From Deltaproteobacteria bacterium (GTDB taxonomy: Bacteria > Desulfobacterota > Desulfobacteria > Desulfobacterales > C00003060): 64,000 nucleotides of DNA. The notes below the pieces were generated by a model. It had not been told where the DNA came from. It saw only the letters and a program-made list of their open reading frames with translations, and did no database searches. Location of the stretch: assembly GCA_003647275.1 (NCBI GenBank), contig QMMN01000002.1, positions 21,726 through 85,725 on the forward strand, read 5' to 3'. Both the position numbers and the translations under genes were made by a program. Below are positions 14,415-60,267 of this stretch, piece after piece (positions within the stretch are counted from its first letter, which is position 1; every line of letters begins with the position of its first letter).

Positions 14415-16058
14415 ATGAGCAACCAGACTCAAAACAAGAAAGCTTTGCCAAAGATTTCTCTTTGCATGATCGTGAAGAATGAAGAAGAGATGCTTCCAAA
14501 GTGTCTCAGCAGTGTTAAGCATTTTGTGGATGAAATCATTGTGGTGGACACGGGTTCAACCGATAGGACCGTTGACATAGCCCAGAGTTATGGCGCAAAG
14601 GTCTATCACCATCCCTGGGAGGATGACTTCAGCAAGCACCGAAACCAGTCCATTTCTTATGCCGCCGGAGATTGGATCTTCATTATGGATGCGGATGAGG
14701 CGTTAAGGCCTGGAGATGGCGTAAAGATTCGAGAGGCGATTTCACACCCTGAAATCGATAGTGTGATGGTTGTCGTGGTCAATTTTTTTAATCAGGGAAC
14801 AAGTCAGAGTTTATTCAATCAGGTGCGTTTGTTCAAAAGAGATCCAGCCATCTTTTACTCGGGCATTGTTCACAATCAGCTGACCGGATACCAGTCAACC
14901 GTGGCCTGTTCCGCACAGATCTATCACTATGGTTATGATTTGGGCCAGGAGAGGATGCAGGCAAAGTTTGTTCGTACTTCCTCTCTGCTAAAGAAAAGAA
15001 TAAAACAGGACCCTGAAAATTTTCGCCATTATCATGACCTCGCTGTCAGCTATTCCATGAACAGAATGTTCGATGAAGCTGTCTCGGCAGGTATCAAGGC
15101 GATTGAATTAGCCAAAAACACTGAAAAAAAAGGCGGGGTTCTGATTCTGTGGACCTACTTTATTGTGGCATCCTCGTTGCTGATACAGAGAGATTTTCAG
15201 GGGGCAGAGAAGTATGCCCTTGAGGCACTGAAAAGATTTCCTAACCATCTTGATTCCCATTTTATTCTTGTAATGGCTTATCACGGATTGAAGGATTGGG
15301 CCCGTGTGAAAGAGGTTTCCGATGACTATTTCAATCTTCTCAAGGCCGTGCAGGAGCACCCCGGTCGCTTTGGCTATATTGTCAACAATACCACTGGAGA
15401 AGCTTGGCGCGTTCATCTGGTTTTAGGAGATTATTACCTGGAACAAGGGGATGTTCATCGGTGTAAGGAGGCATTTGATCATGCTTTTTCCGGTGCGCCA
15501 GTGGCATTTGAATGCCTGAAGATTATTGCCGACAGTTATAAAAACCGATCCTTATGGAAGGAGGCCGCCTATTATTACCAGCAGGCCTTCAAGGAAAAGG
15601 GTGACTTTCTGGGGGCCTTGTTGGGTCTGGCCTTGGCAAAGAATCGCCTTGGTAAAAAGAGAGAGGCCATCCAATATTATGAAAGGGCTTTGGAATTAGA
15701 ACCTGATTCCATTGAGGCCCTGGTCAACTTGGGCGACCTTTACTGTGAACAAGGGGAGGAAGATCTTGCTCAAAAATTCTATGAGAAGGCCCTGGGCATT
15801 GAATCCAAACTCGTCAATGTTTCACTTCGGCTGGCTAACTTTTCCGTGCAAAATGGTGAACTTGAGAAATGCGTGAGCTATTGTGAAAATATTCTTGAAA
15901 GCCTTGGTCTGTCGTTCAACCGCCCACTGGAAAGCGTATCGGATTTGGCTGATCTCTTTTTGATTATTGGCCATGAGTTGGATAAATCTGGGAGGGATGA
16001 CCTGTTTAGGGAGGCCATGAAGGTCGCGTTAAATCTAAAACCAGAACTAATAGCATAG
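14415..16058 (+). CDS. GT2 glycosyltransferase with C-terminal TPR domain (paralogue 1)
   Basis: GT2 motifs are ISLCMIVKNEEEMLPKCLSSVKHFVDEIIVVDTGSTDRTVDIA, HHPWEDDFSKHRNQ and DWIFIMDADE. The C-terminal half is TPR repeats. ATG 14415 (RBS GAAGGA) is preferred over the ORF-track start at 14379. Confidence 0.85.
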   Translation: MSNQTQNKKALPKISLCMIVKNEEEMLPKCLSSVKHFVDEIIVVDTGSTDRTVDIAQSYGAKVYHHPWEDDFSKHRNQSISYAAGDWIFIMDADEALRPGDGVKIREAISHPEIDSVMVVVVNFFNQGTSQSLFNQVRLFKRDPAIFYSGIVHNQLTGYQSTVACSAQIYHYGYDLGQERMQAKFVRTSSLLKKRIKQDPENFRHYHDLAVSYSMNRMFDEAVSAGIKAIELAKNTEKKGGVLILWTYFIVASSLLIQRDFQGAEKYALEALKRFPNHLDSHFILVMAYHGLKDWARVKEVSDDYFNLLKAVQEHPGRFGYIVNNTTGEAWRVHLVLGDYYLEQGDVHRCKEAFDHAFSGAPVAFECLKIIADSYKNRSLWKEAAYYYQQAFKEKGDFLGALLGLALAKNRLGKKREAIQYYERALELEPDSIEALVNLGDLYCEQGEEDLAQKFYEKALGIESKLVNVSLRLANFSVQNGELEKCVSYCENILESLGLSFNRPLESVSDLADLFLIIGHELDKSGRDDLFREAMKVALNLKPELIA

Positions 16059-32845: not shown

Positions 32846-33538
32846 ATGAAGCAAGTGCAAGCCTCTTCTATTCGGACTGTGATCGTAGATGATGACAGAA
32901 CGATCGGCGACATCCTGAGGGATTTGATTTCAAAAGAGCATGTTTCGGTTGAGGTTTTCAACGATGGTTTTGAGGCTCTACAGTTCATTAAAAAACAGCC
33001 TGTGGATATCCTCATTACTGACCTTGTGATGCCCAGGATTGGAGGCCTGGAAGTATTACGCCGGGCCAAGATCACGAATCCCGATGTGGTTGTGATCATC
33101 ATCACCGGGCATGCCTCACTTGAGACTGCCATTGAGGCTGTAAGGGAAGGGGCTTATGACTATATCAAAAAACCCTTCAAACTCCAGGAGATGGAGATTG
33201 TCTTCAACAATGCTGTTGAGCGGGTCACCCTGATCCGGGAAAACAGGCAGTTGCTCAAAGAACTCAAAGAAGCCTATGACCAATTGGTTGCCATCAAGAA
33301 AGAAAGGACCGAATCCAATTATGAGGACAAAGAGGAAGAGGACAGGATGGATAGGCTTAATTTTTTTTCCCGCGACCTGCTCGGCCTTCACCTTATGCAC
33401 ACCTCTCCAATAGGCAAACCCAACTATTTTGAACAACTGCAAAATATCTCCATGCTAAAAAAGGACGGATTATTGACTGAGAAGGAATTCAATGCGTTTA
33501 AAGCCCACCTATTAAAAGCCATGAAAGCCCATGAGTGA
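32846..33538 (+). CDS. Response regulator: receiver domain + coiled coil + SHOCT-like C-terminal motif
   Basis: REC domain: VIVDDDRTIGDILRDLI..VDILITDLVMPRIGGLEVLR..VVVIIITGHASLETAIEAVREGAYDYIKKPF. C-terminus: LKKDGLLTEKEFNAFKAHLLKAM (SHOCT-like). It starts 3 nt after flaG. Confidence 0.8.
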   Translation: MKQVQASSIRTVIVDDDRTIGDILRDLISKEHVSVEVFNDGFEALQFIKKQPVDILITDLVMPRIGGLEVLRRAKITNPDVVVIIITGHASLETAIEAVREGAYDYIKKPFKLQEMEIVFNNAVERVTLIRENRQLLKELKEAYDQLVAIKKERTESNYEDKEEEDRMDRLNFFSRDLLGLHLMHTSPIGKPNYFEQLQNISMLKKDGLLTEKEFNAFKAHLLKAMKAHE

Positions 33539-35102
33539 ACCCCTGAACATATTGGTTGTTGATGATGACGAAATGATCCTTCAGGTTTTCAAGGATTTTT
33601 TGAACAGAACGGAGACCTATTCGGTCTTGACCGCGCGAGATGGGGCAGAAGCCCTTAAAATCTTTGGACGCGAGCAGGTCGATTTTTGTTTCACAGACCT
33701 TAATATGCCAGGCATGGACGGGATCGAGTTCACCAGACAGGTTCATGAGCTCGACAACACCATACCGGTTGTTGTTATGACGGGATATCCATCTACAGAT
33801 AACGCGATAGCAACCCTGAAACACGGGGTGGTAGACTTCTTGGTCAAACCGTTTAGAATTGGTGAAATAGAGGTCACGATTAGGAGGGCTTTAGAACAAA
33901 AGGCACTCTTTATTGAAAATATGCTGCTAAAGGAGGAAGTCAAAAAAAAGGAACGTATTGCCCAGTTAAATGAAGAACTGTCTAACAAGGTTAGGGATCT
34001 CAAGATATTGAACATGATTTTACAGAAGGTAGACTGGGTAACAAGGAGCTCAGACCTCTTTGATCTGATCGTTAAGCTCTCTGCAGAGATAACCAGCAGC
34101 GACGAAGTCCATTTTTATATCCTGGATGACACTTTTGAACGGCCAACACCTATTGCATCTTTTTATAAAGGATCCAAATCTGGGTGCAGTGAAGACACAG
34201 GGAAACAGGCCGATCAAGCCTGCCGGCTCGGGGACAGCAACAGTTATTTCGCAGAACGCCTTGCAAAAAAAATATCCGAAGGAATGCCGCTTCTTATTGA
34301 TGGCAGTTATGACAAGACATTTTCCGATGCAAATATCTCTTCGCTGGTTGTTATTCCGTTCAAGATTCGCAATAAGCTGTTTGGTATGCTGGCTGCCATC
34401 GCCAGAAATGGATCGGCGCCTTTAAGCGAGAAGGATCTGTACTATCTGAATTTTTTGGCTGAGAGGGCCACGTTTGTTATAGAAAATGTGGCTCTGTATG
34501 AGAACATCTACGAGAACCTTTTCGCCACGCTCTATGCTTTTGTTGAAGCGATTGAGGCTAGAGATCCTTATACCAAGCAGCATTCGAGCCGGGTAACCGA
34601 ACTTGCACTGCGCATCGGAAAGGAGATGGGATGTTCTGACGAGCAACTGGATCTATTAAATTTTTCAGGGTATTTGCATGATATCGGGAAGATCGGTATT
34701 CGGGATAGTATCCTGCTGAAACCCGGTCCCCTAACCGAGCAAGAATATGAAGCCATTAAAAAACATCCCATCATTGGCGCGAACATTGTGGGGCACTTGG
34801 GCCTTTTGGTCGAAGAGCAGAAAATCATTCTACATCATCATGAAAGATGGGACGGGAAAGGATATCCTGATGGTCTTAAAGGTGAATCGATCCCGTTTTT
34901 GTCCCGCATTCTTACCGTGGCCGATGTTTATGATGCCATGGCCTCTGACCGTGCCTACCGGAAAAGGCTTCCTGACGAGGTCGTAATCAGGACGATTAAG
35001 CAAAATGCTGGTAGCCAGTTTGATAAACAGGTGGTTGATGCATTTCTGAGGGTCTGCAAGAATAAACCAGCATTTCTCCCCACGCTTGAACCGCACCCAT
35101 AA
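33531..35102 (+). CDS. Response regulator with HD-GYP domain (putative c-di-GMP phosphodiesterase, RpfG-like)
   Basis: REC domain: ILVVDDDEMILQVF..FCFTDLNMPGMDGIEF..VVVMTGYPS..DFLVKPF. A central GAF-like region follows. HD-GYP domain: HSSRVTELAL..SGYLHDIGKIGI..HHHERWDGKGYPDGL..ADVYDAMASDRAYRK. It overlaps the upstream stop codon. Confidence 0.85.
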   Translation: MSEPLNILVVDDDEMILQVFKDFLNRTETYSVLTARDGAEALKIFGREQVDFCFTDLNMPGMDGIEFTRQVHELDNTIPVVVMTGYPSTDNAIATLKHGVVDFLVKPFRIGEIEVTIRRALEQKALFIENMLLKEEVKKKERIAQLNEELSNKVRDLKILNMILQKVDWVTRSSDLFDLIVKLSAEITSSDEVHFYILDDTFERPTPIASFYKGSKSGCSEDTGKQADQACRLGDSNSYFAERLAKKISEGMPLLIDGSYDKTFSDANISSLVVIPFKIRNKLFGMLAAIARNGSAPLSEKDLYYLNFLAERATFVIENVALYENIYENLFATLYAFVEAIEARDPYTKQHSSRVTELALRIGKEMGCSDEQLDLLNFSGYLHDIGKIGIRDSILLKPGPLTEQEYEAIKKHPIIGANIVGHLGLLVEEQKIILHHHERWDGKGYPDGLKGESIPFLSRILTVADVYDAMASDRAYRKRLPDEVVIRTIKQNAGSQFDKQVVDAFLRVCKNKPAFLPTLEPHP

Positions 35103-35176
35103 AAAACCATTCAAAGTGTGCCCGTCTGCATACTTGCTGGTTGACGACAATCCACCTTTCATCTTGCCATTAGTAA

Positions 35177-35255
35177 GTGAAGCCTCCCCCCGCCCTTCCG
35201 GACGGGGGTTCTGCCTGACGGCAGCGCTTCGCGTCCGGGGAGCAGGCCGGTCAAT
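35177..35255 (-). repeat. Dispersed GC-rich intergenic repeat, family 1, copy 2 (inverted relative to copy 1)
   Basis: gtgaagcctccccccgcccttccggacgggggttctgcctgacggcagcgcttcgcgtccggggagcaggccggtcaat is the reverse complement of the element at 14174-14250. It starts 75 bp after the HD-GYP stop codon. Confidence 0.85.
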
Positions 35256-35309
35256 AGCTTTTTAGCATGCGCCAGAGGCAGTTTTGGGGTTTACCCATAA
35301 TATGCAAGA

Positions 35310-35325
35310 TGGTATAGTGATTGCA
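35310..35325 (+). promoter_or_regulatory. Sigma-54 promoter candidate upstream of the PilZ-kinase pair
   Basis: TGGTATAGTGATTGCA has GG at 35311-35312 and GC at 35323-35324, with a perfect TTGCA -12 element. It lies about 85 bp upstream of ATG 35411. Confidence 0.6.
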
Positions 35326-35410
35326 TGCTGTGATTTCCTGTGACTATCTTGTTCCTTTAGATTAAATTGATCCTTTTGGCTGAACCAAATTTCTGAATGT
35401 GGGGGAAAAT

Positions 35411-36022
35411 ATGCAGGAATTTCCGTGCCAAGAGAGAAGAGAGTATGTCCGGACACCCTTGTGGGTTGATGTTGAGTTTACCATTTTGGATGAGGATGAA
35501 TATGAAGCTGTCAGGCGATCTGAACGGCCGCCCCCGCGGTTTATAAGCCAAGAAGCCTTGCCCCCTGGTGAAGAGGGGCAATATCAAGCGGATAGCGCAT
35601 TTCATTCAAATTTGATAGATTTTTTAATTCACATTGATCAAAAATTGGATCGCATATTAAAGCTGCTATCCAAAGTCCCCGGTCTGGAGGTTCCAGCCTT
35701 CAAGGATGACAAGTGTAAGGGGGACCTTTTTGTGGGAAAGGGTTTAGATATTAGCGGTGCCGGGATGAGTGTCATATGCGATAAGCCTATAGAGCCAGGG
35801 CGGATCCTTAGGGCGAGTTTCATGATCTCAAGATTTCCTATCATACCGTTAGTTGTATTTGGGGAGGTTGTACGTACGACACCTGTGCAAGATGATGGCA
35901 AGCAGCGCTATCAGGTTGTTATAAAGTTTATTGATCTGGATGAAGAGGATAAAGAAAAAATCATTGCTTACACATTTCAAGTCCAAAGAGATGCAATTAG
36001 AAAAAAGAAAAAGAGACAATGA
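35411..36022 (+). CDS. PilZ-domain protein (c-di-GMP receptor) with a long insertion between the two binding motifs
   Basis: RxxxR motif (QERREYVRTP) and D-x-S-x-x-G motif (LDISGAGMS). The C-terminus has a beta-barrel-like pattern. ATG 35411 is preferred over GTG 35399. Confidence 0.75.
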   Translation: MQEFPCQERREYVRTPLWVDVEFTILDEDEYEAVRRSERPPPRFISQEALPPGEEGQYQADSAFHSNLIDFLIHIDQKLDRILKLLSKVPGLEVPAFKDDKCKGDLFVGKGLDISGAGMSVICDKPIEPGRILRASFMISRFPIIPLVVFGEVVRTTPVQDDGKQRYQVVIKFIDLDEEDKEKIIAYTFQVQRDAIRKKKKRQ

Positions 36023-36870
36023 TGGATAATCGTAAAGAAAGTTCCGGAGAATTGATATTCCCATCGGCATCGTCAAGGGAACGGATGCTGCTGAGAAAAC
36101 TTATTGAAAACTATTATGGTTTGTACTTGGTTCGACTCATCAAGGGGATAATCCACAACCTCAATGGTCCGCTTCAAATCCTTTATATTCGATCTGAACA
36201 ATTGGAGCAGAGTCTGTCGCAATTACGGGGTGTCTTGCAATCAGAAACTCTTAGCGAAGCCGAGGGATTAGTAGGCCGCATGGAGGAAAGGATCAAATCG
36301 CTTTCAACGAGTCTTTATGATTTGAATACCCAACTCAGCCACCTCACAAGTGATTTGGTTATTGAAAGGCACTCTGAAGTCGGGGATGTTAAGATCAATC
36401 AAGTGGTAGAAAGCTGTCTTTATCTTCTCAATGCCAATATGTTTTTCAAGCACAACGTGAAAAAAAAGATTCGATTGGATGATGGGCTTCCAATTTTAAA
36501 GGGGAGAAAAACCGATTTTTCCCTTATCATTTTAAATCTTGTTCAAAATGCCCTAGAGGCAATGGTCGATGCTCAAGACAAACACCTTACCCTCGAAACC
36601 GCCAGCAAAGAGGACAAGGTGGTTATCAGGGTTGAGGATACTGGCTGCGGCGTCCCTGAAGAACACCGTGAATACATATATGAGACTTTCTTTACGACCA
36701 AGAAAGGAGCTGAGTACGAAGGCAAGCTTGATAAACATGTAGGCCTCGGCCTGTCACTTGTATGCCTCTTGCTTGAGGATTACAATGGAACCATTGCACA
36801 CCAAAGTGTTCCTGGCAAGACCACCTTTACTGTTGAAATCCCCTGCTTGGTCAATTTGTCAGATGGATAG
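36019..36870 (+). CDS. Soluble sensor histidine kinase (HisKA-like + HATPase_c)
   Basis: H-box-like IKGIIHNLNGPLQIL. N, G1 and G2 boxes: LNLVQNALEAM, VEDTGCGVPEE, GLGLSLV. There are no hydrophobic segments. The start overlaps the PilZ stop (ATGATGG). Confidence 0.75.
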   Translation: MMDNRKESSGELIFPSASSRERMLLRKLIENYYGLYLVRLIKGIIHNLNGPLQILYIRSEQLEQSLSQLRGVLQSETLSEAEGLVGRMEERIKSLSTSLYDLNTQLSHLTSDLVIERHSEVGDVKINQVVESCLYLLNANMFFKHNVKKKIRLDDGLPILKGRKTDFSLIILNLVQNALEAMVDAQDKHLTLETASKEDKVVIRVEDTGCGVPEEHREYIYETFFTTKKGAEYEGKLDKHVGLGLSLVCLLLEDYNGTIAHQSVPGKTTFTVEIPCLVNLSDG

Positions 36871-37233: not shown

Positions 37234-38283
<1,050 letters not shown>

Positions 38284-38381
38284 TGCTGACGGTTCGTGAA
38301 TGGCAATGCTATGGATCTCTACTTTTTTGAACCATATTCATTTCTCATAACCGCTTAGCTTGGGAAAACCACTGGATTTCA

Positions 38382-38504
38382 ACAGGCTGGCTGTTGCCCA
38401 AACAGCCGCGTACCTGGCATGAGGCTGATAAACACTCAAAGAGGGCTGAAACTTGGATTGTCGTGATTTGGGTAACAGCCTGTCAAAATTTCTAAGGATC
38501 TGAT
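38382..38504 (+). repeat. Dispersed intergenic repeat, family 2, copy A
   Basis: acaggctggctgttgcccaaacagccgcgtacctggcatgagg..aaacactcaaagagggctgaaacttgg..tcgtgatttgggtaacagcctgtcaa..gatctgat aligns with 47202-47358 in the same orientation. It contains the hairpin ggctgtt-gccca-aacagcc. Confidence 0.8.
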
Positions 38505-38823
38505 CCTTTTCCTGTATCTTCTGTCAAAAAAATGGCAGACCGGAAAAAATGTCCGTCTTAAAAGACTTGAGGTCTTGGCCTGAGCCATCTCCCAGCTTTG
38601 CTCGTTCATGTTTTTTTACGGTATTTTGTCCCAAATTATGCGATGAAACCTCCGTGGGTGAGAAGGGAATTTTCCTTAAAAGCCATGATCATATTGGCCA
38701 TCCAAAAGGGAATAATCGGCAAAAGAAAATGTAATATAAAGAGATAGTTAGATATGCCCTTGCCATTAAGGCATGATTCAATTTCATTGCCCTTTCTGAG
38801 TTTTTTGAATCATGTGCCTATTT

Positions 38824-38839
38824 TGGTGCAATTAATGCA
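38824..38839 (+). promoter_or_regulatory. Sigma-54 promoter candidate upstream of the HTH-PAS/cheW/cheA/cheR genes
   Basis: TGGTGCAATTAATGCA has GG at 38825-38826 and GC at 38837-38838, the correct spacing. It lies about 170 bp upstream of ATG 39008. Confidence 0.45.
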
Positions 38840-39007
38840 TGTAATGCATGAGGATCATTATGCGAGCGAGGGGGATAAACCTGAACAGCATACCATTGTT
38901 GTCATGACCCCGCTTGTGGCCCGTTGCGAGAAGGGGACTAAAGATTCAGGACCATTCTCCCGATAGATAGAAGCAACAGGGTATTTTGAATCTTCAGGAG
39001 CAGGGCA

Positions 39008-39595
39008 ATGGAGAAAAGTCTCTTTTCTACACCAGAGTTAGCCCACCTTTTGGGTGTATTTCACACCACCATCAGGCGATGGATTGAACGGGGTAAGATA
39101 AGGGGTATCAGGGTGGGGAGAAATTATAAGATTCCTGCCGAGGAAGTGATCCGAATATTGGATGATCATGACCTGCCCCTGCCCGAATCACTACGCAAAT
39201 ATAAGCACAAGTTGACAGATGAGAATGAGGGCTTATCCACGGTACACCATCATGGTTCTATTCTAGAAAAGTTACTCCTGGTTGAAGAAATAAAAGATCC
39301 GGCCCTCATATGCCGTAAGCAGGCTATTATAGGTGCCAATCAGGCCTGTGCGGATTTGTTTGGGTATAGCCAGGCGGATCTGATTGGTCTGGATGTTGCT
39401 GAGGTCATGAATGGCACTTTTTACGAGAAATTAGTCGATTTGGCTGAAAACCGCCGGGAGCACACTGATCAGGGACCGGCACATTATAAAGCACATTTGA
39501 AGACAGACAAGATGCAGAAAAAGAGGGTAAAGATTTCAGTTAGTTCCTTGAAGCATCTACCGGATGCTTTGCTACTGATCATAAGAGAATACTGA
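39008..39595 (+). CDS. DNA-binding protein: excisionase/MerR-type HTH (HTH_17) + PAS-like domain
   Basis: N-terminus: TPELAHLLGVFHTTIRRWIERGKIRGIRVGRNYKIPAEEV. C-terminus, PAS-like: ICRKQAIIGANQACADLFGYSQADLIGLDVAEVM. Confidence 0.65.
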   Translation: MEKSLFSTPELAHLLGVFHTTIRRWIERGKIRGIRVGRNYKIPAEEVIRILDDHDLPLPESLRKYKHKLTDENEGLSTVHHHGSILEKLLLVEEIKDPALICRKQAIIGANQACADLFGYSQADLIGLDVAEVMNGTFYEKLVDLAENRREHTDQGPAHYKAHLKTDKMQKKRVKISVSSLKHLPDALLLIIREY

Positions 39596-39646
39596 CAAGG
39601 CTTTGCTTCAAGTCGACATTCAGTCAATCCACAGCGAGGTGAGAAA

Positions 39647-40159
39647 ATGCCAGAATTGCAGGAGGGGGGTGACCGGGCTTCGGAGATGGGCCGTGGTAAG
39701 GAGGGTAAATATCTTACCTTTACGTTGGCCAAAGAGGAATACGGCATTGGCATCCTGAAGGTCAAGGAGATCATCGGGATGATGCCGATCACTTCCATTC
39801 CCCAGACCCCGGAATTTGTCAAGGGGGTCGTAAACTTGCGGGGCAAGGTGATCCCAGTGGTGGACCTGAGGCTGAAGTTCGGGATAGAGGAAATGGCGTA
39901 TACGGAACGCACCTGCATTATCGTGGTGGAGATTGCAGGGGAAGCCGGGGATGTCCTTGTCAGGATCGTGGTCGATGCAGTCTCGGAGGTATTGAACATA
40001 AAAGATGGCGATATCGAGGATGCGCCCACATTTGGCACCAGGTTGAATATGAACTACATTCTCGGGATGGCCAAGATAGAGGGGGGCGTGAAGATCCTGC
40101 TTGATATAGATCAGGTGCTGAGTACGGAAGAAATTGGCCTGTTAGATCAGGTGGGATAG
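39647..40159 (+). CDS. cheW: Chemotaxis coupling protein CheW
   Basis: KYLTFTLAKEEYGIGILKVKEIIGMMPITSIPQTPEFVKGVVNLRGKVIPVVDLRLKFG. Confidence 0.9.
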   Translation: MPELQEGGDRASEMGRGKEGKYLTFTLAKEEYGIGILKVKEIIGMMPITSIPQTPEFVKGVVNLRGKVIPVVDLRLKFGIEEMAYTERTCIIVVEIAGEAGDVLVRIVVDAVSEVLNIKDGDIEDAPTFGTRLNMNYILGMAKIEGGVKILLDIDQVLSTEEIGLLDQVG

Positions 40160-40201
40160 AGGTTTTGGGCTTTCAAGACTTACTAAGAGGGGTTTTGCTA
40201 T

Positions 40202-42403
40202 ATGGAGGGTTATCTTAATACTGTCAAAGAGTTACTCGACAAGCTGGCCCTTGAAGTTGTCATGCTGGAGCCAGATGACGTCCAGGGGTTCGGTGTTGTT
40301 TTGAATCGTCTGGATGAGGTTATCGGGGTGTCCACAGAAGCTGGCGAAGCCTCTTTTGCCAATCTTGGGAGGGCCATAAAGTCGATTGCAGAAAAATTAG
40401 TGTTGGGTGAGGTGTCCGCGCCAGAGGAAGGGATAAAGCAGATTGAGAAGGGCGTATCACTGTTTCAGGAAGTCTTGAGAGATGCTGAAGATGGCAAGTC
40501 CGCTTCTGAGAGGATCGCAAGGTTTTTGGTCGAATGCGGTATTTCAGATACTGATGGGAGCAAGAGTGAGGCAGGTGGTTCCAAAAGTGAAGACGCGGAA
40601 AAAGCAGGCGAGACAATGCCAGACATTGATCAGGACAGGGAACTTGTTGAAAGTTTCATTATAGAGGCCTTGGAACATCTTGGGAACATAGAGGTCAATG
40701 TCCTTGCTCTTGAACAGGATCCAGAAAACCGTGAGGTCATTGATGCGATTTTCAGGCCCTTTCACACGATCAAGGGGGTTTCTGGTTTTCTGAATCTTTC
40801 TGATATCAACCGACTTGCCCATGAGGTGGAAACCCTGTTGAATGGTGCAAGGAATCAAAAGCTGACTGTGGATGAAACATTGACTGACACGGTTTTAGAC
40901 GCGGTTGATTTGATAAAGGCAATGATCAACCACCTCAAGGAAGAGCTTGACACGGGCGTGGTTCAGCCAGCTGATTTTGGGCTGGAAGCTTTTTTGGATC
41001 GATTAAGAAGGTTACAAGCCAGGGAGGTTGAAAAGGTTCAAACCGAAACCGCACATGTTTTAGCAGGGGATGGGGCTGATGCTGGAAAGATTTTGATTGA
41101 AAAGGGGGGGGTGGCGGAGCCAGATGTTGCCAAGACCCTCGAGAAGCAGAAAGAGCTGAGCGGGCCGGGCAAGAAGCTCGGTGAACTTCGGAGGGCTTTA
41201 GGTGTTGCAGAGGTGGGAGTGGAGGCGTCTCGGTTTGTAAAGGTGGATACGCAGAAGCTGGATAACATGGTGGATATGGTGGGAGAATTGGTGATTACCC
41301 AGGCGATGTTGGGCCAGGATATAAGCGGTTTGGCCAGCCAGAACAAGAAACTTTATACCAATCTGGGTCAGCTCAGGCGGATTACCTCTGAGATCCAGAG
41401 GATTTCGATGTCAATGCGCATGATTCCCATCAGACAGACCTTTCAAAAGATGATTCGTCTGGTTCGTGACCTTTCGAGAAAGTCCGGCAAGCAGGTCTCC
41501 CTTGAGATGACCGGCGAGGAGACCGAGATAGACCGCAACATGGTGGATGAGATCTATGATCCCCTGGTGCACATGGTCAGAAATTCTGTTGATCACGGTA
41601 TTGAGAAGCCCAACGTGCGCAAAGCAAAGGGCAAGCCCGAGGTCGGGACATTGAAGCTGAAGGCCTATCATAAGGGAGGGAATATCGTGATTGAAATCTC
41701 GGATGACGGTGGGGGGCTTGACCGGGATAAGATCATTGAAAAGGCTATAGAGCGTAATGTGATTCGATCTGGTGAAAATATGACGGATCAAGAGGTTTAC
41801 AGCCTTATTTTACAGCCCGGTTTTTCAACGGCCGATGTCGTGACCGATGTGTCAGGCCGGGGTGTGGGCATGGATGTGGTCAAGCGAGCCCTTGACAAGA
41901 TGCGCGGGTCACTGGATATCCATTCGGTCAAAGATCAGGGGACAACGATCCTGATGAAACTGCCTCTGACCCTAGCCATTATTGACGGCGTCATGGTCCG
42001 TGCAGGGGACAGAAATTATATCATCCCGACGGTTTCGGTGGTTGAGTCCCTCAGGCCGGATAGGGCGGACTGCACCACTGTGGTCGACAAAGGGGAGATG
42101 GTCAAGATCAGGGAGAATCTTTATCCTTTGATCAGGCTTCATGAGCTTTTTGACTTTGAGCCTGCGTATTATAACCCCTGGGAAGCGATTGTTGTGGTGG
42201 TCGAAAGTGACGGCCGGCGCAAGTGTATCCTGGTGGATGAGCTTGTCGGCAAACAAGAGATTGTGATCAAGAGCCTGGGCGAACAGCTAAAGCGTGTGCA
42301 AGGGATGGCTGGTGGCGCCATCCTGGCTGATGGACGGGTGGGCCTCATCCTGGATGTGCCGGGGTTATTCACCCTGAGTGAGGGTGAGACCAAAGTGAAC
42401 TAA
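40202..42403 (+). CDS. cheA: Chemotaxis histidine kinase CheA
   Basis: HPt domain: IDAIFRPFHTIKGVSGFLNL. Dimerisation and HATPase regions: DPLVHMVRNSVDHGIE, ISDDGGGLD, GRGVGMDVV. C-terminal CheW-like domain. Confidence 0.95.
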   Translation: MEGYLNTVKELLDKLALEVVMLEPDDVQGFGVVLNRLDEVIGVSTEAGEASFANLGRAIKSIAEKLVLGEVSAPEEGIKQIEKGVSLFQEVLRDAEDGKSASERIARFLVECGISDTDGSKSEAGGSKSEDAEKAGETMPDIDQDRELVESFIIEALEHLGNIEVNVLALEQDPENREVIDAIFRPFHTIKGVSGFLNLSDINRLAHEVETLLNGARNQKLTVDETLTDTVLDAVDLIKAMINHLKEELDTGVVQPADFGLEAFLDRLRRLQAREVEKVQTETAHVLAGDGADAGKILIEKGGVAEPDVAKTLEKQKELSGPGKKLGELRRALGVAEVGVEASRFVKVDTQKLDNMVDMVGELVITQAMLGQDISGLASQNKKLYTNLGQLRRITSEIQRISMSMRMIPIRQTFQKMIRLVRDLSRKSGKQVSLEMTGEETEIDRNMVDEIYDPLVHMVRNSVDHGIEKPNVRKAKGKPEVGTLKLKAYHKGGNIVIEISDDGGGLDRDKIIEKAIERNVIRSGENMTDQEVYSLILQPGFSTADVVTDVSGRGVGMDVVKRALDKMRGSLDIHSVKDQGTTILMKLPLTLAIIDGVMVRAGDRNYIIPTVSVVESLRPDRADCTTVVDKGEMVKIRENLYPLIRLHELFDFEPAYYNPWEAIVVVVESDGRRKCILVDELVGKQEIVIKSLGEQLKRVQGMAGGAILADGRVGLILDVPGLFTLSEGETKVN

Positions 42404-42407
42404 TTGT

Positions 42408-43253
42408 TTGAGCACAGATATGCTTTCTACTGAGTTATCAGACCGAGATTTCAGACGGTTCAGTGACCTGGTTTATAAAAGGTGCGGGATCAACCTGCAT
42501 GAGGGCAAAAAGGAACTGGTCCGCGCCCGGCTGGGCAAACGGCTCCGAGAGACAGGTTTTAAAGATTTCAATGCCTACTATAAGTTCTTAACCCAAAAGG
42601 ATAACGGGCATGAACTGGTGAAGATGCTTGATGCGATCTCCACCAACCTGACGAGCTTTTTTCGGGAAGAAAAACACTTTGATTTTCTGAATCAGGTGGT
42701 CTTTCCGTCTTATGTGGCAGGCCGGAATGGGAAACGTCTTCAGAGGCTCCGATTCTGGAGTGCAGGGTGTTCAAGTGGGGAGGAGCCCTATTCTCTGGCC
42801 ATAAGCTTGTTGGAATACTTCGGCGACAGCCCGGGTTTTGATATAAAAATTTTGGGAACCGATATCTCCACGAAGGTCCTGGCGCAGGCCAAAGGAGGGG
42901 TCTATCCGGCAGCCAGGCTTGAAAGGATGCCGTCCTCTGTGGTCAGGAAGTATTTTCAACGGGGTTACGGGCGGCAGGAAGGTTACTTCAGGGTGAAGCT
43001 GTCAGTAAGAGCAATGGTGGAGTTTAGGCGTCTTAATCTGATCGAGCCGTTTCCGTTCAAAGAGGCCTTTAATCTCATACTTTGCCGAAATGTTATGATC
43101 TACTTTGACAAAAGCACACAGCAGACACTGGCGAACAAGTTCTACGACGCGCTAACAGAAGAGGGTTATCTGTTTATCGGACACTCAGAAACCCTGACAG
43201 GGATTAACCATCAGTTCAAGTACATCAGGCCAAGCGTTTATCAAAAGCCATGA
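42408..43253 (+). CDS. cheR: Chemotaxis protein methyltransferase CheR
   Basis: LSDRDFRRFSDLVYKRCGINL, TNLTSFFREEKHFDFL, RFWSAGCSSGEEPYSLAI, ILCRNVMIYFD. The start is either TTG 42408 or ATG 42420. Confidence 0.9.
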   Translation: MSTDMLSTELSDRDFRRFSDLVYKRCGINLHEGKKELVRARLGKRLRETGFKDFNAYYKFLTQKDNGHELVKMLDAISTNLTSFFREEKHFDFLNQVVFPSYVAGRNGKRLQRLRFWSAGCSSGEEPYSLAISLLEYFGDSPGFDIKILGTDISTKVLAQAKGGVYPAARLERMPSSVVRKYFQRGYGRQEGYFRVKLSVRAMVEFRRLNLIEPFPFKEAFNLILCRNVMIYFDKSTQQTLANKFYDALTEEGYLFIGHSETLTGINHQFKYIRPSVYQKP

Positions 43254-43298
43254 AAAGAGAAAAGATACGCATTGCCAATATGGCTCCTGATATGCCAG

Positions 43299-43314
43299 TG
43301 GCACGAAGCCGGCA
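43299..43314 (+). promoter_or_regulatory. Sigma-54 promoter candidate upstream of cheX-cheY
   Basis: TGGCACGAAGCCGGCA has a perfect -24 element (TGGCACG) and GC at 43312-43313 at the correct spacing. It lies about 115 bp upstream of cheX. Confidence 0.5.
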
Positions 43315-43428
43315 GGTTGGTTTAGAATTCTTTATAGATAGCTTCAAGCGCGCAGGGGGGTTGGCGGTTGATTTGACTTTGTACCGTGAAGGTGGTAAAA
43401 AAAAATATCAGGTCGATGGAGGGTGAAC

Positions 43429-43890
43429 ATGGATGTAAAATATATTAATCCTTTTATTAATGCGACGATCAATGTGCTGGAGACGATGGCATTTACCAAG
43501 GCCGAGGCCGGAAAGCCATACCTAAAGAAAGATCAAGTTGCCCAGGGTGATGTTACAGGGGTGATTGGCTTGATAGGGGGTGTCAGCGGAACGATTTCGG
43601 TCAGCTTTACCGAAAAGAGCATCCTGTCCATTGTCTCCAATATGTTTGGCGAGGAGATGAAGGAACTGAACGAAGAGATAAAGGATGCCGTTGGTGAGAT
43701 TACCAACATGATCTCTGGGCAGGCAAGGCAGGAATTGGAAGGGATGGGCATATCGTTAAAGGCGGCAATCCCTTCGGTGATCGTCGGCAAGAATCATTCT
43801 ATAAACCACATTACCAAACACCCCATAATCGCCATCCCATTTAATACCGCTAACGGGGGGTTTACGATTGAGGTGTGTTTTGAAAAGTGA
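43429..43890 (+). CDS. cheX: CheX-type CheY-P phosphatase (CheC/CheX/FliY family)
   Basis: MDVKYINPFINATINVLETM.., GDVTGVIGLIGGVSGTISVSF, DAVGEITNMISGQAR. RBS GGAGGG precedes ATG 43429. Confidence 0.8.
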   Translation: MDVKYINPFINATINVLETMAFTKAEAGKPYLKKDQVAQGDVTGVIGLIGGVSGTISVSFTEKSILSIVSNMFGEEMKELNEEIKDAVGEITNMISGQARQELEGMGISLKAAIPSVIVGKNHSINHITKHPIIAIPFNTANGGFTIEVCFEK

Positions 43891-43918
43891 TGGAATCCTG
43901 CCTAAGGAGGTCTGAAAG

Positions 43919-44296
43919 ATGGATTTAAGCATGAAAATATTGGTGGTCGATGATTTTGCCACCATGCGACGTATTGTGAAAAATGTCCTCAGGCAGATCG
44001 GTTTTACGAATATCGTAGAGGCTGACGATGGGTCAACTGCCCTGGGGGTGCTTAAGAAGGACAAGATTGACCTGATTATATCTGATTGGAATATGCCCAA
44101 GGTAAATGGGCTGGAGCTATTGAAAGCCGTTAGAGGCGATGAATCAACGAAAAATTTGCCATTTATCATGGTCACAGCAGAGGCCCAAAAAGATAGTGTG
44201 GTACAGGCGGTTCAAGCTGGTGTAAGCAACTACGTTGTAAAACCGTTCACAGCAGAGGCCTTGAAGGAAAAATTAGAAAAGGTATTCAGTAAATAG
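43919..44296 (+). CDS. cheY: Chemotaxis response regulator CheY
   Basis: KILVVDDFATMRRIVKNVLRQIGF..DLIISDWNMPKVNGLELLK..PFIMVTAEA..NYVVKPF. RBS AAGGAGG. Confidence 0.9.
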   Translation: MDLSMKILVVDDFATMRRIVKNVLRQIGFTNIVEADDGSTALGVLKKDKIDLIISDWNMPKVNGLELLKAVRGDESTKNLPFIMVTAEAQKDSVVQAVQAGVSNYVVKPFTAEALKEKLEKVFSK

Positions 44297-44415: not shown

Positions 44416-44871
44416 ATGAATATCAATGAAGTCAATGGGTATACCCACACGAAGCAGCCCTCCTCAGATCGAAAGGCGGGGGGTGACAAGAAATTTGACC
44501 GGATTTTGAATGATGCCATGGATAGCGTTGTCCATGAAGAACGTGCCGGAGACGACCTCTTCCCGGTAAAAGGGGTGGATGCCCCTGTCTTATGGGACCG
44601 CGGACACGTGGACCATTCCATTTTGTTGCAACACGCTTATCATATGCTGGATTTGCTGGAAGAGTACTCAGAGGCCTTAAATAACCCCCACATGACCTTA
44701 AAGCGGATTGAGCCGATTGTGGCCCGAATAGCGCAGGGGCTCAAAGGCTTGGACATGCAATCTATGGACAATGTCGCTCAAGATGATGAGCTTGCAGGCA
44801 TTATCAATGATATAGCCGTCACAGCCAGAGTGGAGGCCTTTAAGTTCCAGCGTGGCGACTATGTTGCATAA
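44416..44871 (+). CDS. Hypothetical protein (151 aa), no recognisable motif
   Basis: The ORF has a good RBS (AAGGGGG) and sits directly after cheY. The composition looks like a real protein, but I recognise no family. Confidence 0.5.
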   Translation: MNINEVNGYTHTKQPSSDRKAGGDKKFDRILNDAMDSVVHEERAGDDLFPVKGVDAPVLWDRGHVDHSILLQHAYHMLDLLEEYSEALNNPHMTLKRIEPIVARIAQGLKGLDMQSMDNVAQDDELAGIINDIAVTARVEAFKFQRGDYVA

Positions 44872-45429: not shown

Positions 45430-46827
45430 ATGATAGCACCGATGCAAAAGATTCTGATTGTGGATGATGATCCTGAGATTCTGGAGGTGATCGCAGATAT
45501 ATTAAGAGAGAAAGGCTATGATGTAGGCACGGCCGAAGACGGGGCAAAGGCCATTAAATGTATTGATGCTGAGTTTTACGATCTGGTTATTACCGATCTT
45601 AAAATGCCTGAGATTGATGGGATGATGCTCCTAAGACATGTTGTTGATCAATCGCCTGACACGGTGTGCATCATCTTAACCGGTTATGGCACCATTGAGA
45701 GCGCTGTTGAAGCCATCAAGACAGGGGCCTTTCATTATATTACCAAACCCATCAAGTCGGGTGAGATGTTGATGGTTGTGGAAACGGCTTTAAGATACAA
45801 ACATCTGGAGAGAGAGAATATCCTTTTAAGGCGGCAGCTTAGGAAAAAGTATCGATTTGAAAACTTTGTTGGTGACAGCAGGCCAATTCAAAAAGTGTTT
45901 GAACTCATAGAAAAGGTTGCGGATACAGACAGCACCGTACTGATCACAGGGGAAAGTGGTACGGGAAAGGAGTTAATAGCCAAGGCAATCCATTATAACA
46001 GCGACCGAAGAGACAAACCCATGGTTGTTATTAACTGTGGGGCAATCCCTGAGGAACTCTTGGAAAGCGAGCTGTTCGGGCATGAAAAAGGGGCCTTCAC
46101 TGGCGCGCACAAGACTCGCATTGGCCGTTTTGAACTCGCCAATGAAGGGACGATTTTCTTAGATGAAATCGGGGATATGAGTCCCAACCTCCAAGTGAAA
46201 CTGCTACGGGTCCTTCAGGAACAGAAGTTTGAGCGGGTTGGAAGTACAAGAACCATCAAGGTAGATATACGCATTATTGCTGCGACGAATCAGAATTTGG
46301 TTAATGCGGTCAACAAAAACACGTTCAGAGAAGACCTTTATTATCGACTCAATGTTATTCCAATAAAGGTTCCTCCTTTAAGGCACAGAAAATCGGATAT
46401 TCCTTTGCTTGTGGATTTTTTTGTCAAGAAATTTAACAAGGAAAAGCGAAAACATGTGAAGGAATTTACAGCAGAAGCGATGGATCTCTTGCTCCAGTAT
46501 GATTGGCCCGGAAATGTGCGCGAGCTTGAGAACCTGGTAGAAAGGGTTATCATCCTTGCAAATAGTGATCAGATCGGGTTGGATGACGTCCCTGATTCGA
46601 TTAAAGGCCGAGTTGAAAAGATAGGGTCTCCCGAACCCACCATCCCCAAGGGCGGGATTCCCTTTGATCATGCTGTCGAGGAATACGAGAAAAAGTTGAT
46701 TCTGCAAGCCCTGAATGAGACGAACTGGGTGAAAACAAAAGCGGCAAAACTGCTTAATATGAATCGAACAACCCTCATCGAAAAGATGAAGAAGAAAAAA
46801 CTATACAGACCCGCTGCTAGTTCATGA
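45430..46827 (+). CDS. Sigma-54-dependent response regulator (NtrC family; FlrC/FleR/AtoC-like)
   Basis: REC domain: ILIVDDDPEILEVI..DLVITDLKMPEIDG. AAA+ domain: GESGTGKELIA, ESELFGHEKGAFTGA (GAFTGA loop), IFLDEIG. Fis-type HTH: NRTTLIEKMKK. Confidence 0.9.
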   Translation: MIAPMQKILIVDDDPEILEVIADILREKGYDVGTAEDGAKAIKCIDAEFYDLVITDLKMPEIDGMMLLRHVVDQSPDTVCIILTGYGTIESAVEAIKTGAFHYITKPIKSGEMLMVVETALRYKHLERENILLRRQLRKKYRFENFVGDSRPIQKVFELIEKVADTDSTVLITGESGTGKELIAKAIHYNSDRRDKPMVVINCGAIPEELLESELFGHEKGAFTGAHKTRIGRFELANEGTIFLDEIGDMSPNLQVKLLRVLQEQKFERVGSTRTIKVDIRIIAATNQNLVNAVNKNTFREDLYYRLNVIPIKVPPLRHRKSDIPLLVDFFVKKFNKEKRKHVKEFTAEAMDLLLQYDWPGNVRELENLVERVIILANSDQIGLDDVPDSIKGRVEKIGSPEPTIPKGGIPFDHAVEEYEKKLILQALNETNWVKTKAAKLLNMNRTTLIEKMKKKKLYRPAASS

Positions 46828-47097: not shown

Positions 47098-47113
47098 TGG
47101 CACAGTAATTGCT
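47098..47113 (+). promoter_or_regulatory. Sigma-54 promoter candidate (best match in the window)
   Basis: TGGCACAGTAATTGCT has GG at 47099-47100 and GC at 47111-47112. It lies about 245 bp upstream of ATG 47357. A small hairpin with a T-run follows (ggcag-gtgtt-ctgcc-cctttttg). Confidence 0.65.
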
Positions 47114-60251: not shown

Positions 60252-60267
60252 TGGCATGCTCATTGCT
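60252..60267 (+). promoter_or_regulatory. Sigma-54 promoter candidate for fliK-flgD-flgE
   Basis: TGGCATGCTCATTGCT has GG at 60253-60254 and GC at 60265-60266. It lies about 50 bp upstream of ATG 60318. Confidence 0.65.

Follow-up and report, generated by a model that had tools for sequence, protein, structure and literature searches.

The window, as we call the whole stretch of DNA analysed here, spans 64,000 nucleotides (nt) of contig QMMN01000002.1 (GCA_003647275.1; forward strand, 21,726-85,725), and all positions below refer to it. It is a flagellar supercluster of a sulfate-reducer-like bacterium. Genes for flagellin glycosylation, flagellin, FliD, FliS and FlaG are followed by genes encoding a receiver (REC) protein, a REC-GAF-HD-GYP response regulator, a PilZ protein and a histidine kinase. 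Then come a chemotaxis (che) cluster, a gene for a protein of 151 amino acids (aa), NtrC1, a TPR protein and NtrC2, and finally the rod genes, FliF-G-H-I-J and FliK-FlgD. The piece studied (35310-36870) holds the PilZ gene, the kinase gene and the promoter element in front of them (Table 1). We find that the PilZ protein belongs to the tPilZ class and that its gene is translationally coupled to the kinase gene, with a conserved sigma-54-type promoter in front of both. They are part of a flagellar regulatory module conserved in Desulfobacterales-type bacteria; by their source names, the orthologous loci and the window itself come from metagenome-assembled genomes (MAGs) of this type. The order of the module is flaG, REC, REC-GAF-HD-GYP, the sigma-54 promoter, tPilZ, minimal kinase, (151-aa protein), NtrC-type activator, TPR, second NtrC-type activator and rod genes.

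A tPilZ protein with intact motifs

The 203-aa PilZ protein matches Pfam PilZ (PF07238) with 45.7 bits against a cut-off of 22.5. The match is confined to residues 102-190 (profile positions 18-102) because the profile is unable to bridge an insert. The same profile is matched by all 46 tPilZ family members tested. The AlphaFold2 (AF2) model, with E20-26, H28-38, H61-87 and E106-114 among its strands and helices, shows the PilZ fold, a six-stranded beta-barrel followed by a C-terminal helix; the predicted local distance difference test score (pLDDT) of its core is 80-95. A reading of the window from sequence alone had placed the RxxxR and DxSxxG motifs, which bind cyclic di-GMP (c-di-GMP), about 100 residues apart, with a Pro-rich loop and a helix between them. 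Both motifs are present, 103 residues apart, and between them lie the Pro-rich loop (RPPPRF...LPPGEE, pLDDT <50) and the long helix H61-87, which contains NLIDFLIHIDQKLDRILKLL. The other sequence statements of that reading are likewise borne out. That reading took the wide spacing as a departure from canonical PilZ domains such as that of YcgR, with 20-30 residues between the motifs; it is instead the defining insert of a published class.

Proteins of the tPilZ class carry a two-helix insert of ~60 aa between strands 1 and 2. The second inserted helix bears an interlock motif, [DENH]x[KR]h[DEN], which builds the tetramer in XCC6012 (DAKLD), and in the PA2989 group the c-di-GMP motifs are >90 residues apart (bioRxiv 10.1101/814665; bioRxiv 10.1101/2020.02.11.943704). 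The window protein is of this class, with its c-di-GMP and interlock motifs intact. Foldseek matched the PilZ domains of YcgR, MrkH, Alg44 and MapZ to the model, and XCC6012 (3PH1/3RQA) aligned over its full length (~195 columns, E 1e-4). The family profile aligns the DQKLD stretch of the window protein onto MDAKLDLILALI of XCC6012 (DAKLD), and the Lys of this stretch, K78, is invariant in 46 members. Like XCC6012 (PDB 3RQA/3PH1), PA2989 and the PF16823 proteins, the window protein stands alone, is ~200 aa long and has a two-helix insert of ~60-80 aa and a basic C-terminal helix.

The binding motifs are conserved across the family. R10, R14, I114, G116 and G118 are invariant among 18 PilZ homologues, and R10, R14 and G118 in 46 diverse members, where S115 is conserved at ≥90%; in some orthologues the Ser is replaced by Gly. 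PA2989 binds c-di-GMP with a dissociation constant (Kd) of 188 nM (PMC11725899). It keeps RxxxR and the second motif, as does the window protein, in which the second motif is fully intact. The family-wide conservation of RxxxR and [DN]xSxxG, together with the binding by PA2989, supports c-di-GMP competence, and the window tPilZ is a probable c-di-GMP receptor.

Within the known tPilZ class the family forms a new branch, one that the Pfam model for the class does not recognise. At E <= 1e-3 it comprises 1931 representatives, and at E <= 1e-10, 348; nearly all are 185-210 aa long, with the motifs 85-105 residues apart. PF16823, the Pfam tPilZ model, gave no match to the window protein at E <= 10 and matches 2 of the 46 members (best E 0.063). 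Low sequence similarity within the tPilZ class has been noted (PMC11725899). As PF16823 fails to detect this divergent branch, it is filed only under generic PilZ. A sequence search of solved structures likewise returned weak PilZ matches only (PP4397, E 3.7e-5; XCC6012, E 0.08), so that, for all the likeness in architecture, sequence similarity to XCC6012 is marginal. The two-helix insert is found in nearly all of the best 150 representatives. All of these 150 are stand-alone proteins; the longest have ~290 aa, their extra length being N-terminal only, and none is fused to a kinase or to anything else. No second tPilZ copy was found within the window or in any locus examined.

A minimal, NtrB-like histidine kinase

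The gene that follows encodes a sensor-less, NtrB-like kinase consisting of a dimerization and histidine phosphotransfer (DHp) domain and a catalytic and ATP-binding (CA) domain. In Pfam it matches HATPase_c only (68.8 bits), with no HisKA match reported, and in the AF2 model (pLDDT 82) it consists only of a helical hairpin (H19-75, H78-109) and an ATP-binding domain. Its maximum 19-residue hydropathy is 1.28, hence it has no membrane segment. Neither Pfam nor the AF2 model gives a sensor, PAS, other input or receiver domain in the kinase, which bears out the description of it as lacking membrane and sensor domains in the sequence-only reading. Residues 40-275 align to the kinase core of HK853 (residues 23-246). 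H46, N177 of the N box, D207-x-G209-x-G211 (G1) and G242-x-G244 (G2) are invariant in 34 kinase homologues. The best NCBIfam matches are AtoS, ZraS, PnpS and NifL. By their names, AtoS and ZraS are the partner kinases of AtoC and ZraR, two regulators that also rank among the best matches of NtrC1.

The H-box reads H-N-L-N-x-P-L-Q. Asn47 is invariant in the 34 homologues, and the fourth residue after the His is G/N/S/A, not T/N. In HisKA kinases a Glu or Asp usually follows the phospho-His; it is regarded as the catalytic base and as needed for autophosphorylation. As Asn replaces this acid here, the kinase may be weak, phosphatase-biased or partner-dependent.

The PilZ stop codon (TGA 36020-36022) overlaps two potential kinase starts, ATG 36019 (ATGA) and ATG 36022 (TGATG), in agreement with the overlap (ATGATGG) pointed out earlier. 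The latter may be the true start, since orthologues begin M-D/G-N.

The pair is conserved but separable

We call the tPilZ clade that contains the window class A (PilZ identities 36-75%). In 34 of 35 class A loci the PilZ gene is followed by the kinase gene. The distance from PilZ stop to kinase start is -8, -4, +2, +3, +7, +14 or +16 nt in 23 of 25 loci; the starts in the other two are ambiguous. Other tPilZ clades leave 74-335 nt to the next gene, with one exception; tight coupling to the next gene is special to class A. Residues specific to class A PilZ proteins (R43, F107, C123 and Y187) form no clear surface patch. In the sole locus without a downstream kinase (L018, 1731-2700), minus-strand genes follow instead, which may reflect a rearrangement or an assembly join. 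Another locus, L005 (JAIWEZ010000124.1), comes from a MAG labelled Gammaproteobacteria; its content is nearly identical to that of Desulfobacterales L003 and L004, and the label is probably a binning or labelling error.

Kinases of this family also occur without a PilZ gene, in L078, L079, L080 and P0105, followed by an NtrC activator gene and, in two of the four loci, by FlhG-like and FliA-like genes. Such PilZ-less clades branch among the PilZ-linked ones in the kinase tree, a pattern that suggests repeated loss of PilZ from kinase loci. Class A tPilZ is almost never without the kinase, yet the kinase survives PilZ loss; this asymmetry is the pattern expected of an accessory regulator. The pair is therefore real and conserved in class A, but it is separable and not obligate. 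Of the sequence-only reading, the sigma-54-type promoter, the adjacency and the stop/start coupling stand; the PilZ-less kinases and kinase-less tPilZ proteins weaken its interpretation.

The PilZ-less order in L078 (5222-11559), L079 (5207-7852) and L080 (4092-8966) is REC-HD-GYP, kinase, NtrC activator. In L078 this order continues with a ParA/FlhG-like and a sigma-28-like gene. In L078 and L080 the sigma-54-type site lies 5' of the HD-GYP gene instead.

Other tPilZ clades lie in different contexts. Class B is a sister, paralogous clade (30-41% identity) that heads operons of the order PilZ-(CheR)-CheA-CheD-HDOD-CheY-CheX-CheB (L023-L042 and L053-L064; for example, L062:5995-12576 and L041:4511-10962). 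Five distant members (L081-L085, 26-34% identity) all have RxxxR, [DN]xSxxG and the interlock motif. In L081 the order is HD-GYP, tPilZ, NtrC, TPR, NtrC, with no kinase. The remaining distant orders are HD-GYP, tPilZ, PilZ, CheX, CheY; REC, HD-GYP, tPilZ; FliS ... HD-GYP, tPilZ, CheX, CheY, CBS, CheA; and tPilZ, FlgF, FlgG, FlgA, FlgH, FlgI. An HD-GYP gene lies directly 5' of tPilZ in class A and in four of the five distant contexts. What stays constant through these varied contexts is the flagellar or chemotaxis setting and, mostly, the HD-GYP gene just upstream. L083 and L085 have a second, canonical short PilZ gene nearby.

The promoter element

The strong -24/-12 element that the sequence-only reading saw ahead of the pair is TGGTATAGTGATTGCA. 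It matches TGGCAC-N5-TTGCW at 12 of 14 specified positions, with its GG and GC ten bases apart. The window has four sites that fit TGGYAY-N5-TTGCW; 0.26 would be expected, and 0 of 100 shuffles reached four. A strict search for the 16-mer TGGTAY-N5-TTGCA within 450 nt upstream of the PilZ start found it at 31 of 34 class A loci and at all 14 class B loci (45 of 48 together); the class B 16-mer, TGGTATGATAGTTGCA, is nearly identical. In 51 non-identical upstream regions, the flanks of which are unconserved, TGGTA and TTGCA are invariant, even at the two positions where the pattern allowed two bases, and the GG-to-GC spacing is fixed.

The 16-mer could also be read as an extended -10 sigma-70 promoter, as TGnTATAAT sits inside TGGTATAAT, the reading in many orthologues, and the window site is a sigma-70-like match (TTTACC-17-TATAGT with an upstream TG, 9 of 12 positions). 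We consider this highly improbable and reject it on the conservation pattern. Across the 51 regions the would-be -10 hexamer ends in T (35), G (12) or C (4), but TTGCA, five bases on, never varies, and no -35 is conserved. Sigma-70-like sites in the promoter scan were no commoner than in shuffled sequence, and the window encodes two sigma-54 activators and has other TGGCAY-N5-TTGCT sites ahead of flagellar operons. Judged by the invariant TTGCA, the varying end of the hexamer and the missing -35, a sigma-54 promoter is the better reading of the conserved 16-mer.

There are three further TGGCAY-N5-TTGCT sites. That at 47098-47113 lies 244 nt 5' of the TPR-NtrC2 operon and that at 60252-60267 just 5' of the FliK open reading frame (ORF). 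The third (15166-15181) is inside a glycosyltransferase-TPR gene and has no obvious role. An rpoN gene was not found in the window.

A possible route from c-di-GMP to flagellar gene expression

We propose, with a probability of roughly 0.4, that the locus encodes a flagellar module that joins c-di-GMP to two-component signalling, in which the NtrB-like kinase phosphorylates the HD-GYP regulator and NtrC1, and tPilZ feeds c-di-GMP status onto the kinase. The kinase would phosphorylate the adjoining NtrC-like receivers, those of the HD-GYP phosphodiesterase and NtrC1. The phosphodiesterase would determine how much c-di-GMP is present, and NtrC1 would activate sigma-54 flagellar promoters, among them that of its own operon. 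The tPilZ protein would bind c-di-GMP and, in class A, could dock on the kinase and bias its kinase/phosphatase balance. A feedback loop would then close between the c-di-GMP level and flagellar gene expression. Such a module would be a functional counterpart of FlrB/FlrC, FleS/FleR or FlgS/FlgR, with c-di-GMP entering via a separate PilZ protein and not via the activator itself.

The tight coupling, and the near-absence of class A PilZ genes without the kinase, support the action of tPilZ on the kinase. The link between kinase and NtrC-type activator is supported by the NCBIfam matches to kinases and their regulators, and by the adjacency of the two genes in relatives. The invariant H46 and N, G1 and G2 boxes speak for a competent kinase, and the acceptor Asp kept by all four orphan receivers for competent receivers. 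There is also a precedent for a PilZ-kinase link in HapZ, a PilZ adaptor for the kinase SagS (bioRxiv 10.1101/2020.02.11.943704). The earlier suggestion that the PilZ protein is the sensory input of the kinase is plausible for class A, where it is only one of at least two comparably likely readings.

Several observations weigh against this proposal. Kinase homologues with 45-56% identity adjoin the same type of HD-GYP gene too closely for a PilZ gene to fit in between (the four PilZ-less loci above). At least three clades of the kinase family do without PilZ, and tPilZ relatives lie beside HD-GYP or flagellar genes with no adjoining kinase. Kinases show no relaxed surface after PilZ loss: of 63 conserved columns only four (L55, L106, T110 and D112) differ in two or more of the PilZ-less clades, all by conservative changes, which gives no interface signal. 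A mirror-tree analysis of 19 loci was uninformative, with no co-evolutionary contact signal. Correlations among the distance matrices of PilZ, kinase, REC1 (the upstream receiver protein) and HD-GYP are all 0.93-0.98, and the partial correlations do not single out PilZ and kinase (0.34 given HD-GYP, versus 0.79 for kinase and HD-GYP given REC1). The Asn in place of Glu or Asp after the phospho-His makes autokinase activity itself uncertain, and the data single out no one receiver as the target of the kinase. In addition, FlgX, the sole tPilZ protein with a known function, binds the stator and not a kinase (PMC11725899).

The last point leads to a different explanation, namely that tPilZ is a c-di-GMP effector on the flagellar machine, at the stator as FlgX or at the rotor/stator interface as YcgR and MotI. 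Its gene would then merely lead sigma-54 motility operons, and the kinase would be an independent, FlrB/FlgS-like regulator. All seven tPilZ contexts are flagellar or chemotactic whatever follows (kinase, CheR/CheA, NtrC, CheX/CheY or FlgF-G-A-H-I), and the same sigma-54 16-mer lies 5' of class A and class B genes. The occurrence of each gene without the other and the unrelaxed kinase surface also fit, and FlgX is a tPilZ protein that stabilises the stator ring (PMC11725899). However, the stop/start coupling is tight with the kinase only and is kept down to 36% identity. FlgX is without c-di-GMP motifs and interlock motif (PMC11725899), both of which the window protein has, and no motA or motB gene was found near the pair within the window. 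We regard an effector role at the motor as the main rival reading, somewhat less likely than action on the kinase.

It is unlikely that the direct partner of tPilZ is a receiver-containing protein, either the REC-GAF-HD-GYP phosphodiesterase or an NtrC-type activator, and not the kinase. PilZ proteins are known to join HD-GYP complexes in Xanthomonas. In favour of such a partner, no gene accompanies tPilZ more persistently than the HD-GYP gene directly upstream of it, and in L081 tPilZ lies between an HD-GYP gene and an NtrC activator gene with no kinase. HapZ, moreover, binds the receiver domain of SagS (bioRxiv 10.1101/2020.02.11.943704). Yet a spacer of 180-500 nt with its own promoter, and in the window also a stable hairpin, parts the HD-GYP gene from tPilZ, and the HD-GYP neighbour in L085 has no receiver domain.

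Within our proposal that tPilZ acts on the kinase, a stronger version seems improbable. The tPilZ tetramer would be the missing input domain of a kinase unable to work alone, as the H-N box might indicate, and tPilZ, either loaded with c-di-GMP or free of it, would sit on the hairpin and switch the kinase between kinase and phosphatase states. The pair would then serve the sigma-54 flagellar cascade as a checkpoint kinase gated by c-di-GMP and coupled in feedback to its own HD-GYP phosphodiesterase. If true, the tPilZ class would gain its first assigned signalling function and its first kinase partner.

Comparison with known systems

The sigma-54-driven tPilZ-kinase unit beside an HD-GYP regulator combines in a new way what is known of PilZ adaptors, of flagellar two-component systems and of tPilZ proteins at the flagellum. 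A literature search found no description of a flagellar tPilZ-kinase or tPilZ-HD-GYP module, nor of such a tPilZ neighbourhood. In contrast to XCC6012, PA2989 and the PF16823 proteins, the proteins of this family are encoded in flagellar or chemotaxis loci, behind a sigma-54 promoter and, in class A, by genes coupled to a kinase gene. With FlgX, a component of the stator ring in Campylobacter jejuni, the window protein shares the tPilZ architecture and the flagellar genetic association; it differs in its intact motifs and in having an HD-GYP gene and a kinase gene as neighbours.

The HapZ-SagS pair of Pseudomonas aeruginosa resembles the putative arrangement here in concept, in that c-di-GMP status reaches two-component phosphotransfer through a single-domain PilZ protein. 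HapZ, however, is a canonical short PilZ protein acting on the receiver domain of a hybrid kinase, whereas here we have a tPilZ protein and a kinase without a receiver domain. Another adaptor, MapZ, acts on the chemotaxis methyltransferase CheR1. The likeness there is with class B tPilZ, not the window gene, as class B genes directly precede CheR/CheA genes; in L038 the class B ORF overlaps the start of a 277-aa ORF, which matches in size the CheR that is confirmed for L062. MapZ, for its part, is of the canonical PilZ type, and the comparison concerns the paralogous clade.

The setting also recalls FlrB/FlrC, FleS/FleR and FlgS/FlgR. As in these systems, a cytoplasmic kinase is encoded among flagellar genes near fliD/fliS/flaG behind a sigma-54 promoter, an NtrC-type activator is encoded nearby and sigma-54 sites precede rod/hook operons. 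Unlike FlrB, FleS and FlgS, the window kinase has no PAS or input domain and has an unusual H-N box; the likeness is one of setting. The unit here further differs in having two extra receivers, one of them on an HD-GYP phosphodiesterase, and a PilZ gene.

Except for FlgX, the tPilZ class is without an assigned function, and work in other phyla has been called for (PMC11725899). The family described here is large and motif-intact (the 348 representatives at E <= 1e-10) and its genes lie consistently in flagellar and chemotaxis loci, as a rule right behind an HD-GYP gene. The coupling of class A to a minimal kinase offers testable partners, namely the kinase, the HD-GYP regulator, the NtrC activator and the stator; what the finding provides for the tPilZ class is such partners, not a mechanism. 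It suggests how c-di-GMP could reach the sigma-54 flagellar hierarchy of Desulfobacterota, whose activator is not itself known to sense c-di-GMP. If the kinase link is false, the result is still a useful context map, though otherwise ordinary.

Neighbouring genes

Table 1. Features of the tPilZ-kinase locus and its surroundings (positions in the window)
Feature	Position	Strand	Remarks
Sigma-54-type -24/-12 element, TGGTATAGTGATTGCA	35310-35325	+	GG 35311-12, GC 35323-24; 101 nt 5' of ATG 35411
tPilZ-class PilZ protein, 203 aa	35411-36022	+	Pfam PilZ match, AF2 model, Foldseek, motifs
RxxxR, R10/R14 (RREYVR)	Residues 10-14, nt 35438-35452	+	c-di-GMP-binding motif
D113-I-S115-G-A-G118	Residues 113-118, nt 35747-35764	+	[D/N]hSxxG motif; 103 residues from RxxxR
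Interlock motif D76-Q-K78-L-D80	nt 35636-35650	+	Fits [DENH]x[KR]h[DEN]
Two-helix insert; basic C-terminal helix	Residues ~27-105; residues 178-202 (tPilZ protein)	+	AF2 model
Minimal soluble histidine kinase, 283 aa	36019-36870	+	DHp hairpin (residues 19-109) and ATP-binding domain
Phospho-His H46	nt 36154-36156	+	Invariant; followed by invariant Asn (H46-N47, 36154-36159)
REC1, single-domain receiver protein, 230 aa	32846-33538	+	Overlaps start of HD-GYP gene
REC-GAF-HD-GYP response regulator, predicted c-di-GMP phosphodiesterase	33531-35102	+	HD (YLHDIGK) and HHERWDGKGYP motifs and receiver Asp present
GC-rich stem-loop in spacer 3' of HD-GYP gene	35195-35245	+	Region 35103-35260: minimum free energy -59 kcal/mol, z = -2.7; no U tract
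Chemotaxis cluster (CheB, HTH-PAS, CheW, CheA, CheR, CheX, CheY-size ORF)	37243-44296	+	Between kinase and 151-aa gene; missing there in several relatives
151-aa protein, no Pfam/NCBIfam match	44416-44871	+	In relatives directly between kinase and NtrC-type activator
NtrC1, NtrC-type sigma-54 activator with canonical receiver, candidate kinase substrate	45430-46827	+	Adjoins or nearly adjoins kinase in relatives without inserted che cluster

The REC-GAF-HD-GYP gene is the most persistent upstream neighbour of the tPilZ and kinase families alike. REC1 is kept upstream in all class A loci with enough sequence (47-78% identity in relatives). The 151-aa protein (46-61% identity) is encoded immediately 5' of the NtrC-type activator in relatives. 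Where the kinase is 47-52% identical, the che cluster is missing and the order is FlaG, REC, HD-GYP, PilZ, kinase, 150-aa protein, NtrC, TPR, NtrC, FlgB.

The receivers of REC1, the HD-GYP protein, NtrC1 and NtrC2 are NtrC-like, those of REC1 and the HD-GYP protein scoring best against NtrC-like receivers, and all four retain the acceptor Asp. CheA is the sole other kinase in the window, so that two REC proteins and two NtrC-type activators are without a kinase of their own there, as the sequence-only reading had said of the nearby receivers.

The stem-loop may mark the end of the upstream transcription unit. Spacers between the HD-GYP and tPilZ genes in related loci are otherwise poorly conserved and range from ~180 to 500 nt; in L004, ~180 nt are inserted between the promoter element and the ATG. 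The C-terminal ~100 aa of REC1 have no family match and comprise a coiled-coil-like segment and LKKDGLLTEKEFNAFKAHLL. The che cluster looks inserted in comparison with L008, L009 and L037, and other relatives carry parts of it only; its CheY-size ORF (125 aa) is at 43919-44296.

FliD (27891-31427) is unusually long at 1178 aa, compared with ~790 aa for the called FliD product in L008 and L009. It has internal repeats, with residues 364-492 matching three places in L006. Upstream of the flagellin gene, a large island of ~24 kb (1721-26118) resembles a flagellin-glycosylation island, with several glycosyltransferase-TPR fusions, a 1416-aa multi-glycosyltransferase, a sulfotransferase fusion, a radical SAM/B12 protein and an MptE-like protein.

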